Below are positions 1 through 12,945 of a DNA stretch of 64,000 nucleotides, one piece after another. The stretch lies in the sequence record MT833283.1; one strand, 5' to 3'. Every line of letters starts with the position of its first letter. The stretch's first letter is position 1. Below the pieces are notes generated by a model. It saw only the letters and a program-made list of their open reading frames with translations, was not told the DNA's origin and ran no database searches. The position numbers and the translations under genes are program-made. The DNA is from Escherichia coli phage vB_EcoS_Ace.

Positions 1-68
1 CCTGGGATTCGAACCCAGAACTGACGGATTAAAGGTCCGCTACTCTTATCCAGTTGAGCTAGCAATCC
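1..68 (-). tRNA. tRNA, 3' acceptor end cut by window edge; anticodon loop read as CCTTTAA (possibly UUU, Lys)
   Basis: Minus-strand hand fold: D-arm GCTC/GAGT, anticodon stem GCGGA/TCCGT, T-arm CTGGG-TTCGAAT-CCCAG; the 3' acceptor strand lies outside the window. C at position 33 is atypical. Confidence 0.55.
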
Positions 69-700
69 AATTTTTCTACTAATAATTTAAAAGCATCTAG
101 TACAGGTACTTCAAACCACTCTCCAGATACTCTATAATCTTTAAGAAGATTATGTAATTCTTTCTCTGTACGTCTTTTATCCGACGAAAATCTGAAATGG
201 TATAGCTTGTAGTCTCTATTAGGTGAATAAGTTTGATAACTTGCTAACCTCTCATTCACATCTATAGTCATACCTATTTTATACATGCCTGGCCATGCTG
301 GATTACCAATTACATATATAAAACCTTCCGTTATAGGTATTTTATGCTCCCTTTTATACTTTAAGAGATTTAAGGCTGCCATTCGATAACAGAATCTAAA
401 CTCTGAAGTTTTTAACTTACCTTCTTTACCCGAAATTTCGTTATATTTGCTCATATAAGCTCTTATGAGCTTATCATCTATAATGAAGTTATCAGGAAGG
501 TTTAAGGCAGCTAAAACTTTATTAATTAGCATAGACTTCCTTAATAGAGTATCCTTAATAGAGTAGACTTTCAAGTAAGGATGATTGATTCCTAATTCCG
601 CCATCACTTCGTTTTTATCTTTACCGTAATGGGCTAGTGGATACTTCTTACGATCTTTGCTAGATCGTAGATCACTTACCTTTAAACGAAATAATTTCAT
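59..700 (-). CDS. GIY-YIG-like (T5orf172/MUG113-type) domain protein, homing-endonuclease-like
   Basis: 213 aa ORF; core FIYVIGNPAWPGMYKIGMT...NERLASYQTYSP resembles the GIY-(10 aa)-YIG motif; paralog of the 3847-4377 ORF; sits between tRNA genes. Confidence 0.7.
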   Translation of the reverse strand: MKLFRLKVSDLRSSKDRKKYPLAHYGKDKNEVMAELGINHPYLKVYSIKDTLLRKSMLINKVLAALNLPDNFIIDDKLIRAYMSKYNEISGKEGKLKTSEFRFCYRMAALNLLKYKREHKIPITEGFIYVIGNPAWPGMYKIGMTIDVNERLASYQTYSPNRDYKLYHFRFSSDKRRTEKELHNLLKDYRVSGEWFEVPVLDAFKLLVEKLDC

Positions 701-2714: not shown

Positions 2715-2797
2715 TGGCGGGCCGTGTAGGATTCGAACCTACGTTGTCTTTCGACATGGATTAACAGTCCACCGCCAAACCGCTTGGCTAACGACCC
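2715..2797 (-). tRNA. tRNA, anticodon read as GTT (Asn) with an unusual 13-nt extra arm
   Basis: Acceptor GGGTCGT/ACGGCCC, D-arm GCCA/TGGC, anticodon stem GTGGA/TCCAT with loop CTGTTAA, extra arm GTC-GAAA-GAC, T-arm GTAGG-TTCGAAT-CCTAC, CCA encoded. Confidence 0.6.
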
Positions 2798-2804
2798 TAA
2801 AATT

Positions 2805-2880
2805 TGGACGACCGCATGAGATTCGAACTCACATAAGGAGGTTTTGCAGGCCTCCGCCTAAGCCATTCAGCCAACGGTCG
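2805..2880 (-). tRNA. tRNA, anticodon uncertain (apparent 9-nt anticodon loop CCTGCAAAA; GCA/Cys or TGC/Ala)
   Basis: Acceptor CGACCGT/GCGGTCG, T-arm GTGAG-TTCGAAT-CTCAT, CCA encoded; anticodon stem GGAGG/CCTCC encloses 9 nt. Confidence 0.55.
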
Positions 2881-3329: not shown

Positions 3330-3668
3330 TTAAGCAACTACATTTTTCAGAAATTTGATGCCTTTCTTACACTTCTTATACCACCACGTCTTAGAGTTTT
3401 GTCGATTATGAACGCTTGAGATCTTCGCCTCATTAAAGTGCTTCAAAAGCATATAATCAGCCCCTAATTGCTCAAGTGGAATGTGATCTCCACTAGAATC
3501 ATAAACATAAGGCCGTTGATTAGCTCTGTAGTGATATACCTTATTAATCCGGCGTTTAAGCAAAGGACTAGTACAGTATATAAAGAAGTTTTTAGGATGC
3601 ATCAGCATCTCCTTCAAAATTGGTGCACCCCGTTGGTAACGATCCAACCTCTCAAGCTCTTCAGGCAA
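3330..3668 (-). CDS. hypothetical protein
   Basis: 112 aa ORF on the coding strand of this block. Confidence 0.5.
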   Translation of the reverse strand: MPEELERLDRYQRGAPILKEMLMHPKNFFIYCTSPLLKRRINKVYHYRANQRPYVYDSSGDHIPLEQLGADYMLLKHFNEAKISSVHNRQNSKTWWYKKCKKGIKFLKNVVA

Positions 3669-3701
3669 GCGCTAATCCATCTCAGCTAAAGGTGCAAATA
3701 T

Positions 3702-5341: not shown

Positions 5342-5418
5342 TGGTAGGGGTGGTGGGATTCGAACCCACAAAACCTGAATTTTAAGTCCAGTACCTATGC
5401 CAATTCGATTACACCCCC
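5342..5418 (-). tRNA. tRNA, anticodon read as TAA (Leu) with short variable arm
   Basis: Acceptor GGGGGTG/CACCCCT, anticodon stem CTGGA/TTCAG with loop CTTAAAA, T-arm GTGGG-TTCGAAT-CCCAC, CCA encoded. Confidence 0.6.
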
Positions 5419-7293: not shown

Positions 7294-7903
7294 CGTTAAA
7301 GTGATGAATCAGCCAGTCTACTGCGTTTACTGCTTCGTCCATACGAACTTTGTAGTCCGGGGAGTCGATGTACACAGTACGCCCTTCAGGGAACTGATTT
7401 GGAAATTCTTTCTTCATCTGCTCGAACAGTTCAGAAGTAATTGAACGATCGGAGTTAATACGTAAACCATCATCTACCCACTTGACAGTGGGCGCTAGAA
7501 CAATTACTAAATCGTAATGTTCTTCTTTTGCAATTGCTGTAACCACAGGGTTCTTACGATGTTCATAAAGTCTGTGGTAGAACTCAGTAATAAAAGCATT
7601 TGTATCCACAAACATGATCTTATTTGCAGTACGTTCTGCCTCAAACTCTAGCTCTTTGTGTCTGAACGCAATTTTACTATAATCTTCGCTGGTAAGCAGA
7701 TTTTCGTTACCAACTAGATCAACTTCACAATACGTTCGACCATATTCTTCTACCCACGAAGTGTTGTATAGCTTCGCAAGGTATTTTGTTAAAGTAGTCT
7801 TTCCTGAGCTTTCAGTCCCAATGATTACAACCCTACGCACGTAATCTTTACGAACTACGCTAGGAAGAAACTCCCAATACTTCATAAGATCATTACGAAT
7901 CAT
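7280..7903 (-). CDS. nadR: NadR-like ribosylnicotinamide kinase domain (downstream part of a nadR-like gene interrupted by an in-frame TAG)
   Basis: Walker A IIGTESSGKTTL; translation of the same frame upstream back to the TAG at 8114-8116 gives ...RVPISATMIRNDL (nucleotidyltransferase ISxTxIR motif) with no further stop. Confidence 0.75.
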   Translation of the reverse strand: MIRNDLMKYWEFLPSVVRKDYVRRVVIIGTESSGKTTLTKYLAKLYNTSWVEEYGRTYCEVDLVGNENLLTSEDYSKIAFRHKELEFEAERTANKIMFVDTNAFITEFYHRLYEHRKNPVVTAIAKEEHYDLVIVLAPTVKWVDDGLRINSDRSITSELFEQMKKEFPNQFPEGRTVYIDSPDYKVRMDEAVNAVDWLIHHFNVGEF

Positions 7904-10374: not shown

Positions 10375-11247
10375 ATTGATTCCTTTTGTTAGGTATTTTT
10401 AAGAACTCTCGAAAAAGCTCTTAAAGATACCCGGCGGTAGGTAGGGTCAGCCCCCTCAGATTAAGCTCTGCAGCCCTTCCGTCAGACAATATCCTCCAGT
10501 TTAAGTCAGGGTGACTTTGTGGTTATGTTCTCCGTATGTGAAGAACTCGGTTAGGCTTAGGTCATGACTCCCAGCCTACTGCTGCCACTCAACAGGAATT
10601 ATCGCGAATTACCTGTACTATTGGGCACCATTAGTGACATCTCTCATGCCAGCATTTCCCACTCTCATATTCACGCGGTCTGGTAGAATCACACCTCCGA
10701 TTTTCGATGCGAAGCTGGATGCCTAGTCTCTATGTTAAACGGGGCACACACTAGGCAGTGATCCCGAGTTCCGAGTTTGGTTGAGGCCGTCAGGTTTCCT
10801 CGTGGTTTAGCTGTTTCGATTCTAACCTAATACTGATCAGGCGGCGTACCTCCTGAACCGTCATAGTATGTACTCCAGCAGCGAATGCTTATCCGGTATA
10901 AGCCCGAGTTATCCGATTCTTTCCGACCGCAGGATTCGAACCTGCATCTTCCACCAGTTACGGTTTAATATTACCGTTTATACTAGGACGGCAGTGTTAT
11001 CACATAAGTCAGTTCGACACCCCACTAACATAAACTAGAGAAGAGTTTACGAGATTTCGGGACAGCTCCCGTGTTTTCCGCAGATTTTCAGTTCCCTATC
11101 AATAGCAATAAGCGTTAGCTCGTAGCCTCTCTCAGAGTACTTACTAGTCTCCAACTCACCGACTCTATTCAGTGGAATAGCTATCCTAGTAGGAATCACT
11201 AAACTCACTCAGCGTAATCGGCTCGCTGTTCTCTACTTTATGAATTT
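10375..11247 (-). ncRNA. candidate long structured non-coding RNA or very long leader (ORF-free, GC-elevated, promoter-driven)
   Basis: About 870 nt with no ORF of 60 aa or more in the track; visibly more GC-rich than flanking DNA; strong T5-type promoter at 11248-11276 reads into it; contains canonical T-arm GCAGG-TTCGAAT-CCTGC (plus 10928-10944) without a foldable tRNA body. Confidence 0.4.
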
Positions 11248-12420: not shown

Positions 12421-12945
12421 TCACTCCTTATACGGCTGGTATAGGGCAAATTCACCGAATAGGTCAAACCTTAAATCATTTGCTACATCTACCGCTTCTT
12501 TTAGACTAAGAAAGGTTCCGCCCTCTATAGGCTTTTTATCTTTCTTTACAATAACCCTCCACCCTTGAGGTGTTTTATACACATTTTTATAGCCAGAAGT
12601 ATTGGCCTTCCCAATATCTTTATTAGCATTATTTTGTGAATGAGTGGCGTCTCTGAGATTTTCTATTTTATCGCAGAAAGGATTAGTGTCATGCCTAGTC
12701 CTATCTTTATGATCAACTTGTACTGGTAAGTATCCTTTATGATATAAAAATACTAATCTATGGTGTCTGTATGATTTATTATCAATGGACACTACTATTG
12801 ATTTCCCATCTTTAGCCCCAGCAGGCTTATCCGCCCATTTGGCATTCCATGCAGGGGCTTTATTGGGATTAGCTTTCCAGTACAATCTACCTTCCTCACT
12901 ATTGTAGTGAAATAAGGATAATAGGTTTTCCTGGGTTATTTCCAT
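12421..12945 (-). CDS. HNH endonuclease with AP2-like DNA-binding domain
   Basis: 174 aa; HNH region HHRLVFLYHKGYLPVQVDHKDRTRHDTN...ENLRDATHSQN; AP2-like SGYKNVYKTPQGWRV. Confidence 0.7.
   Translation of the reverse strand: MEITQENLLSLFHYNSEEGRLYWKANPNKAPAWNAKWADKPAGAKDGKSIVVSIDNKSYRHHRLVFLYHKGYLPVQVDHKDRTRHDTNPFCDKIENLRDATHSQNNANKDIGKANTSGYKNVYKTPQGWRVIVKKDKKPIEGGTFLSLKEAVDVANDLRFDLFGEFALYQPYKE

Follow-up and report, generated by a model that had tools for sequence, protein, structure and literature searches.

A class-II-like variable arm on the tRNA-Asn of T5-like phage vB_EcoS_Ace and its possible role against tRNA-targeting defence

Two adjacent transfer RNA (tRNA) genes of Escherichia coli phage vB_EcoS_Ace, tRNA-Asn(GUU) and tRNA-Cys(GCA), raise the question of whether the non-canonical features suggested for them, an extra arm on the former and an enlarged anticodon loop on the latter, are real, and what such an arm might do for a phage. 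Both genes lie on the minus strand of sequence record MT833283.1, of which a stretch of 64,000 nucleotides (nt), hereafter the window, has been analysed; it belongs to a T5-like phage (Demerecviridae, Markadamsvirinae). The extra arm is genuine. The interpretation that we put first, granting it slightly less than an even chance, is that the tRNA-Asn is an ordinary Asn decoder whose arm would spare it from tRNA-targeting defence nucleases, and that its neighbour is an ordinary tRNA-Cys with a 7-nt anticodon loop.

The tRNA-Asn gene has been delimited by ARAGORN at exactly 2715-2797 (-), a length of 83 nt, with the terminal CCA encoded at 2715-2717. The Rfam tRNA model (RF00005), applied with Infernal, scores it at 59.0 bits (gathering threshold 29 bits) and finds the variable region lengthened by an insertion of 10 nt, and the minimum free energy (MFE) structure obtained with ViennaRNA, at -30.5 kcal/mol, is a cloverleaf with an additional GUC/GAC hairpin capped by GAAA. 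A sequence-only reading had proposed a GTT anticodon and a 13-nt extra arm, GTC-GAAA-GAC, for 2715-2797, which these results confirm. The RNA, read from the sequence, is GGGUCGU-UA-GCCA-AGCGGUU-UGGC-G-GUGGA-CUGUUAA-UCCAU-GUCGAAAGACAAC-GUAGG-UUCGAAU-CCUAC-ACGGCCC-G-CCA, with an acceptor stem of 7 base pairs (bp; GGGUCGU/ACGGCCC), a D stem of 4 bp, and anticodon and T stems of 5 bp each. The anticodon GUU (2763-2765, minus strand) lies within the 7-nt loop CUGUUAA. The extra arm occupies 2743-2755 (-) and consists of GUC-GAAA-GAC followed by the unpaired AAC, as defined by Infernal/Rfam, the MFE fold and the covariation of homologues; its last C is placed to make the tertiary pair G15:C48.

By its variable region the molecule falls into class II, since its 13 nt include a base-paired stem-loop and exceed the 10 nt at which a variable stem-loop is so classified. 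The D stem (GCCA/UGGC) has 4 bp around a 7-nt loop, and not the 3 bp around an enlarged loop of class II tRNAs. The CUGUUAA loop and the three adjoining stem pairs, GGA/UCC, match E. coli tRNA-Asn exactly. The host tRNA is itself a 76-nt class I molecule, found in 5,425 of 5,426 E. coli genomes and typically in four copies, and an extra arm was thus rightly regarded as unusual for tRNA-Asn. Many records of T5-like phages contain this 83-nt gene with 100% identity and annotate it as tRNA-Asn. It had been allowed that both oddities might be artefacts of hand folding. This caution proved needless for the genuine Asn arm and justified for the Cys loop, where a mismatch had been misread as an enlarged loop. 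Likewise, the prospect that software would fold both molecules as class I tRNAs with 7-nt loops came true for tRNA-Cys, whereas tRNA-Asn has the 7-nt loop yet is not class I.

A 3-bp hairpin in one sequence could be due to chance; the covariation of homologues and their longer stems argue that this arm is not. Pair counts and covariation were taken from a gap-free 49-nt alignment of 21 sequences, and a full-length MAFFT alignment of 36 sequences, which misplaced the arm, was excluded from the counts. The three inner pairs of the arm are formed in all 21 sequences, with 3-4 pair types each, and all four pairs show changes on both sides. As the 21 sequences were picked by their tetraloop hairpin, these counts lean towards pairing, a bias addressed by three controls: the covariation score of the arm is 0.61 against 0.16 in shuffles and was reached by none of 500 shuffles; pairing is lost once the arm partners are slid; and the mean best stem is 3.47 bp in real arms against 2.78 +/- 0.07 bp in shuffled ones. 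Among 101 distinct arms the stems are mostly of 3-4 bp, and a GNRA loop closes 53 of them (GAAA in 38). The combination purine15:pyrimidine48 is found in 44 of 64 long-arm Asn tRNAs, so that the last unpaired base of the arm behaves as position 48 and the tertiary core appears to be kept. These substitution patterns indicate that selection acts on the structure of the arm.

Homologues of the long-arm tRNA-Asn have been found in 560 phage genome records. In 268 of these the identity is at least 95% and the phages are T5-like, which bears out the suggestion that homologous tRNAs of T5-like phages be compared: the arm recurs. About 276 further records, at 60-90% identity, belong mostly to T4-like phages of Klebsiella, Enterobacter and Serratia, and the groups represented include T5-like and T4-like phages, Phapecoctavirus and Novosibvirus. 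The stems vary through compensatory changes, as in CC31 (Karamvirus, T4-like; GUCA-GAAA-UGAC), Proteus phage PM135 (Novosibvirus; GUUC-GAAA-GAAC) and ESCO13 (Phapecoctavirus; GUUC-GAAA-GAAC). In CC31 the entire 17-nt anticodon arm is that of the host and the remainder of the molecule differs.

A pattern of Asn anticodon arm, long spacer and T-loop gave at least 120 matches in IMG/VR, and the matches listed comprise about 100 distinct tRNAs of 79-94 nt on contigs of 5 to 433 kb; the pattern fixes the anticodon arm and the T-loop and so biases any statement on the host-likeness of the former. With a length-neutral pattern, the first 120 viral matches listed divide into 19 long-arm and 101 class I tRNAs, that is, roughly one sixth of the sampled viral tRNA-Asn genes bear a long arm. 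The spacing in these listed matches is bimodal, with gaps of 9-11 nt or 14-25 nt and none between. Long-arm genes have a median of 7 tRNAs within 2 kb, compared with 2 around class I matches; they stand in ordinary tRNA arrays, and no consistently linked protein gene was seen near them. In several phages both kinds of Asn(GUU), long-arm and class I, are present side by side.

In cellular genomes the lineage is rare. Across 185,579 bacterial and archaeal species, with one genome each, the long-spacer pattern hit 30 places, about 16 of them real long-arm tRNAs, and 10 of these, including copies in Micromonospora and Verrucosispora, are part of arrays with 7-36 tRNA genes. No long-arm tRNA-Asn gene was found in 5,426 complete E. 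coli genomes, where the search yielded just weak tRNA-Lys-like matches and a 67-nt prophage tRNA. The long-arm tRNA-Asn is a large, almost phage-only lineage. As a separate observation, the Verrucosispora and Micromonospora chromosomes (contigs L126, L127, L131 and L150) hold 23-36 tRNA genes per 8 kb, among them a long-arm tRNA-Asn of 89-90 nt and Leu tRNAs that are class-I-like and measure 74-77 nt; these arrays look mobile or phage-derived.

The amino acid that such a tRNA would carry has been judged from identity elements and relatives. The first pair U1-A72 is typical of bacterial tRNA-Asn and is read by GatCAB; the window copy has G1-C72 instead, and U1-A72 is present in 70 of 110 distinct long-arm Asn tRNAs. 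The anticodon GUU and the discriminator G73 (2718, minus strand) of the window copy are those on which E. coli Asn identity depends (PMC9976931), and G73 is shared by 101 of the 110. The family also conserves features needed for translation, namely the 7/5 acceptor/T geometry, the GG and UUCGA tertiary motifs and the 15:48 pair, and CCA is encoded in 63 of the 110. The long-arm tRNA-Asn is best read as an Asn acceptor, presumably charged by asparaginyl-tRNA synthetase (AsnRS), and most likely decodes AAC and AAU as asparagine.

Its relatives are consistent with this assignment. When cores were compared with the anticodon arm and the variable region taken out, the nearest core was another long-arm Asn in 90 of 109 cases, and the nearest outsider was a class I Asn in 41, Ser in 20 and Tyr in none. 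Ser arms on the same contigs have stems of 4-7 bp and one unpaired 3' base; Asn arms, with stems of 3-4 bp and 3-4 unpaired 3' bases, have the geometry of the Tyr arms found there (stems mainly of 3 bp, with at most one base unpaired on the 5' side and 3-4 unpaired on the 3' side). The window arm, with 3 bp and 3 unpaired bases, is not of the Ser type. An origin from tRNA-Tyr through anticodon change was also considered and rejected: the arm geometry is Tyr-like, yet no core has Tyr as its nearest non-Asn relative.

The same comparisons bear on the idea that the arm switches or doubles the amino acid identity, for instance through charging by SerRS, with Asn codons partly misread, which we consider very improbable. 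Nematode nev-tRNAs, which are eukaryotic and charged with Leu, are a precedent for a long variable arm (V-arm) on a "wrong" anticodon. Allo-tRNAs are another (PMC5389517). Ser identity relies on arm size and orientation and on G1-C72/G2-C71, and the long arm, G1-C72, G2-C71, C11-G24 and G73 of the window copy overlap the E. coli serine set, in which G73 is common to Asn identity (PMC9976931). With G1-C72, G2-C71 and C11-G24 in place, a minor interaction of this copy with SerRS is possible. Serine as the principal identity was rejected on arm geometry and on the prevalence of U1-A72, which is not the conserved G1-C72/G2-C71 of tRNA-Ser. G73 works as an antideterminant against LeuRS and TyrRS (PMC9976931), and a proteome-wide exchange of Asn for Ser in hundreds of lytic phages is implausible.

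To our knowledge, bacterial class II tRNAs are those for Leu, Ser, Tyr and Sec alone, a textbook limit on long variable arms with which the phage tRNA-Asn contrasts. With class II tRNAs, and tRNA-Tyr in particular, the long-arm tRNA-Asn shares the variable stem-loop and the Tyr arm geometry, and many members share the typical 3-bp D stem (63 of 110 long-arm Asn against 17 of 103 class I Asn). Unlike tRNA-Tyr, it has GUU, G73, mostly U1-A72 and a core nearest to class I tRNA-Asn. Like the nev-tRNAs, it joins a V-arm to the anticodon of a class I amino acid family, and the same is true of the allo-tRNAs, some of which are phage-borne and in which G73 is common (PMC5389517). The allo-tRNAs differ in their 8/4 or 9/3 acceptor/T geometry and their serine or alanine identity, in contrast to the 7/5 geometry, short Tyr-like arm and intact Asn identity elements described here. 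The long-arm tRNA-Asn is thus a noncanonical V-arm tRNA and a phage tRNA diverging from that of its host. No account of a class-II-like arm on phage tRNA-Asn, of its restriction to phages or of a link to defence could be found, in a search that left most subscription journals and the older T5/BF23 literature uncovered, and a long variable arm on phage tRNA-Asn is unmentioned in PMC10264068, PMC11555353, PMC13015707, PMC13191261, PMC5389517 and PMC12409363.

What the arm might protect against is suggested by the PARIS defence system. Cleavage by its nuclease AriB falls between positions 40 and 41 of the E. coli tRNAs Lys(UUU) and Thr(UGU) and, to a lesser degree, of Asn(GUU), where the site reads UAAUC|C (the bar marks the cut); T5 tRNA-Lys, Thr and Asn jointly neutralise PARIS (PMC12409363). 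In an AlphaFold 3 model a second AriB monomer touches U16-U17 of the D-loop, and the change U16C impairs cleavage (PMC12409363). The window tRNA-Asn keeps UAAUC|C and has C16, and its arm starts 3 nt past the cut site.

T5 itself (AY543070; contig L157, 4432-4509) has a different, 78-nt class I tRNA-Asn(GUU) at the same Asp-Asn-Cys position, an allele present in 152 records. Its anticodon stem, GCAUC/GUUGA, leaves 2 of 5 bp unpaired and is unusually weak at the AriB site, the equivalent of which reads UAAGU|U. Both genes are phage GUU genes in the same place in the cluster, and both phages are exposed to nucleases that cut host tRNA-Asn; the T5 molecule is class I with a mutated stem, whereas that of the window combines a host-like UAAUC|C with an arm, and the experiments concern the T5 allele only. 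The two alleles look like alternative solutions to the same pressure. Phage tRNAs that evade anticodon nucleases are changed in the anticodon loop or stem (PMC10264068), while the long-arm tRNA-Asn differs from its host counterpart in the body.

Two phages studied with PARIS bear on this comparison. Bas33 is rescued by T5 tRNA-Lys alone, whereas T7 needs Lys and Thr (PMC12409363). The Bas33 genome (HildyBeyeler, MZ501074) has no Lys(UUU); it contains an intact long-arm Asn, with the arm AUCC-GCAA-GGAU, and at 12775-12861 a Thr(UGU), likewise long-arm and 87 nt in length, in which the AriB site is retained exactly as UAAUC|A. We propose that Bas33 needs only the Lys tRNA because it carries these two. 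That it does without T5 tRNA-Asn in trans under PARIS is indirect evidence that its long-arm Asn can be charged with asparagine. The 87-nt Thr(UGU) of T5-like phages, which occurs also on contig L079 (8998-9084), has the arm GGA-GCAA/GUAA-UCC followed by CGUU, with UAAUC|A intact. Bas34, on the other hand, requires T5 tRNA-Asn in trans despite "encoding one" (PMC12409363). The gene so annotated (SelmaRatti, MZ501103; 17599-17681) is an Asn/Met chimera with three acceptor-stem mismatches, in which the sequence of a long-arm Asn extends from its 5' part through the extra arm into the first half of the T-arm and gives way at the T-loop to the 3' end of tRNA-Met, and ARAGORN makes no call on it. 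This broken gene is our proposed explanation for the requirement. Bas34 had also been considered as a natural test of AriB cutting on long-arm Asn, for which the chimera with its three mismatches is uninformative. Together the two phages suggest that the long-arm tRNAs for Asn and Thr are functional and escape destruction by AriB.

In the mechanism that we envisage, the long-arm tRNA-Asn would keep the GUU anticodon, the host-identical loop and G73 for the host AsnRS and ribosome. The class-II-like arm, a helix of 3-4 bp usually closed by a GNRA tetraloop and followed by 3-4 unpaired bases, would alter the shape of the tRNA body beside the 3' strand of the anticodon stem. Defence nucleases docking on the body, such as PARIS AriB, would then no longer inactivate the phage copy, while decoding and charging would be unaffected. 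What the sequences show is the identity of the genes, the architecture, the conservation and covariation of the arm and its restriction to phages; charging by AsnRS and the anti-defence role are what we infer. A wider proposal, which we regard as possible but doubtful, is that class-II-like arms on class I phage tRNAs may be a general counter-defence by body shape, which would shield or disguise the phage tRNA from immune tRNases docking on the body and leave the host-identical anticodon arm free for charging, modification and decoding. It would cover Asn(GUU) most, as well as Thr(UGU), Cys, Trp and Ile(UAU), with AriB as the first candidate nuclease.

Several points weigh against a protective role. 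Charging and nuclease resistance of the long-arm tRNAs are predictions, and the argument from Bas33 and Bas34 is indirect and confounded by other sequence differences. T4 and T7 required no tRNA-Asn (PMC12409363). Lys(UUU), the main target of AriB, is essentially never long-arm (0 of 71), and arms are present on tRNAs that are not known AriB targets, namely Cys (8 of 63), Trp (5 of 63) and Ile(UAU) (11 of 19). The UAAUC motif is kept in 6 of 11 long-arm and 32 of 66 class I phage Thr(UGU) (p = 0.75), and a specific link between the Thr(UGU) arm and the AriB motif was rejected on this result. The long-arm tRNA-Asn occurs in phages of very different hosts, so that no single known nuclease explains the arm. 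AsnRS, a class IIb synthetase, approaches the tRNA from the side of the variable loop, and its tolerance of the arm is therefore an assumption.

Long arms on other phage tRNAs have been recorded as follows. They are found on 11 of 69 distinct phage Thr(UGU) and on none of 22 Thr(GGU). Eleven of 19 distinct Ile(UAU) tRNAs (IMG/VR contigs L176, L216, L258 and others) measure 91-94 nt with variable regions of 21-25 nt; their loops share a CAGAUUA-like motif, and the arm is longer than that of Asn and of another type. A GNRA-capped, Asn-like arm is carried by tRNA-Cys(GCA) of 82-89 nt on IMG/VR contigs L009, L040, L042, L043, L044, L052 and L069.

The missing association in Thr(UGU) speaks for a different view, to which we give a modest, clearly minor probability: the arm may be a lineage marker of an old and successful phage tRNA-Asn family that just supplements Asn decoding, and may be retained since, once present, it must stay folded or since an added helix lends stability to the core of a quickly made and poorly modified tRNA. 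The 90 of 109 cores nearest to one another would agree with one origin and later horizontal spread, and GNRA is also the commonest loop on ordinary Ser and Leu arms of the same contigs, so that the loop is not special. Yet a mere marker does not readily account for a family that is almost absent from cellular genomes but frequent in at least four unrelated groups of phages, where it persists, nor for the phages with long-arm and class I Asn(GUU) side by side. Moreover, two very different alleles alternate at one T5-like locus, which suggests diversifying pressure over drift, and the Bas33 and Bas34 phenotypes are compatible with a defence role.

A function mainly outside translation appears unlikely. 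In that case the long-arm tRNA would be a decoy or competitive inhibitor of tRNA-targeting nucleases, its host-like anticodon arm binding the enzyme without being cut, or a substrate of a phage enzyme. Inhibition of AriB through competition from overexpressed viral tRNAs has been raised by the authors of the PARIS work (PMC12409363), and the anticodon stem-loop of CC31, host-like over all 17 nt in an otherwise different molecule, would suit a decoy. A decoy would hardly be expected to conserve the full set of translation features (7/5 geometry, G73, CCA in 63 of 110, the GG/UUCGA motifs and 15:48), and the genes lie in ordinary tRNA arrays with no consistently linked protein gene seen.

Should the wider proposal of a counter-defence by body shape hold, such arms would give phages a second way to evade immunity through their tRNAs, apart from the published mutations of anticodon loop and stem. 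The arm on tRNA-Asn offers a concrete, testable hypothesis of how a phage tRNA can keep a host-like anticodon arm and yet withstand immunity directed at tRNAs, and it helps to explain two puzzles of the PARIS work, the need of Bas33 for Lys only and that of Bas34 for Asn. If the tRNA is charged with Asn, AsnRS must tolerate a long arm, which would be useful for the engineering of orthogonal tRNAs. Conserved and covarying in hundreds of phages, a long arm on tRNA-Asn is also a simple sequence marker for phage-derived tRNA arrays.

The second gene of the pair, in comparison, is ordinary. ARAGORN places tRNA-Cys(GCA) at 2805-2880 (-), and the Rfam tRNA model scores it at 40.7 bits; it belongs to class I, is 76 nt long and has a variable loop of 5 nt, an encoded CCA and the anticodon at 2845-2847 (-). 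GCA and the discriminator U73 (2808, minus strand) are the elements expected by CysRS. The G15:G48 tertiary pair of E. coli tRNA-Cys is replaced by A15 and U48. The 9-nt anticodon loop previously reported appears only in the energy-based MFE fold, which opens the pair 31-39 to give CCUGCAAAA. ARAGORN and Infernal give a 5-bp stem and the 7-nt loop CUGCAAA, with U33 and A37 in their usual places. The enlarged loop, at 2842-2850 (-), is apparent because C31 (2850) and A39 (2842) form a C·A mismatch at the closing pair; Infernal flags this pair as non-standard, and the ARAGORN brackets show one unpaired position on each side of the loop.

Enlarged loops had been mentioned as a hallmark of frameshift suppressors, and a tRNA-Cys truly using a 9-nt loop might promote +1 frameshifting or quadruplet decoding, a reading to which we attach almost no weight. 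The thermodynamic fold does leave C31 and A39 unpaired, and at least 146 genomes share the allele. The anticodon arm, however, is of the standard length of 17 nt, without any insertion and with U33 and A37 in register, whereas classical frameshift suppressors carry an added nucleotide, and C·A can make a wobble-like pair. The C31·A39 (EPS7-type) allele, at an identity of at least 99% in 146 phage records, has at the same locus a T5-type sister, 90.8% identical, with a normal A31-U39 in about 186 records. Non-pairing at 31-39 is scattered over many isotypes (69 of 1,948 distinct tRNAs on the phage contigs examined), and C·A at this position recurs in three unrelated tRNA-Cys genes with the common motif C-CUGCAAA-A. 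The frameshift-suppressor reading was rejected on the absence of an insertion and on the canonical loop, and C31·A39 is a variant of the stem that is stable and either tolerated or mildly adaptive. We know of no nuclease targeting tRNA-Cys in enterobacteria.

Deviation around the anticodon, as in the C31·A39 tRNA-Cys, the mismatched T5 tRNA-Asn and a tRNA-Lys with C33, fits the pattern described for phage tRNAs that evade anticodon nucleases (PMC10264068). The tRNA-Lys(UUU) concerned, at 1-71 (-), is partial, being truncated by the edge of the window, and has the anticodon loop CCUUUAA, in which C33 replaces U33; the tRNA-Lys(UUU) of Salmonella phage rokbiter has the same loop. U33 is near-universal, and the position adjoins the site at which PrrC-type nucleases cut tRNA-Lys.

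The Asn and Cys genes belong to a minus-strand cluster in the first 10 kb of the window, in which ARAGORN recognises 14 tRNA genes and Rfam 16. Both are routinely annotated as tRNA-Asn and tRNA-Cys, so that the genes themselves are already known, and from their sequences they are read as functional phage tRNA genes inside a T5-like cluster. The 401 bases around them are identical to rokbiter, yet the best match over 12 kb is E. coli phage Shin27 at only 94.8% identity and 91% coverage; as the identity to rokbiter is local, the window represents a mosaic relative.

Other members of these clusters deviate in their own ways. A tRNA-Phe(GAA) at 3621-3695 (-) has the odd T-loop AUCGUUA and 33.4 bits in Rfam, and a weak tRNA-like sequence at 10918-10992 (-) reaches 29.7 bits, just over the threshold; ARAGORN calls neither. 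The tRNA-Leu(UAA) at 5342-5418 (-) is just 77 nt long with a 5-nt variable loop, class-I-like and without the long arm, and at the corresponding place rokbiter has an 86-nt class II version. Leu(UAG) genes of T5-like phages alternate between 77 and 85 nt, and short forms account for 78 of 185 distinct Leu tRNAs across the phage contigs. On the T5-like contig L164 a tRNA-Glu(UUC) at 7653-7746 is 94 nt long, its length coming from a tandem duplication of about 19 nt, UCUGAGAAUCGGAGUUCAA, and not from a structured arm.

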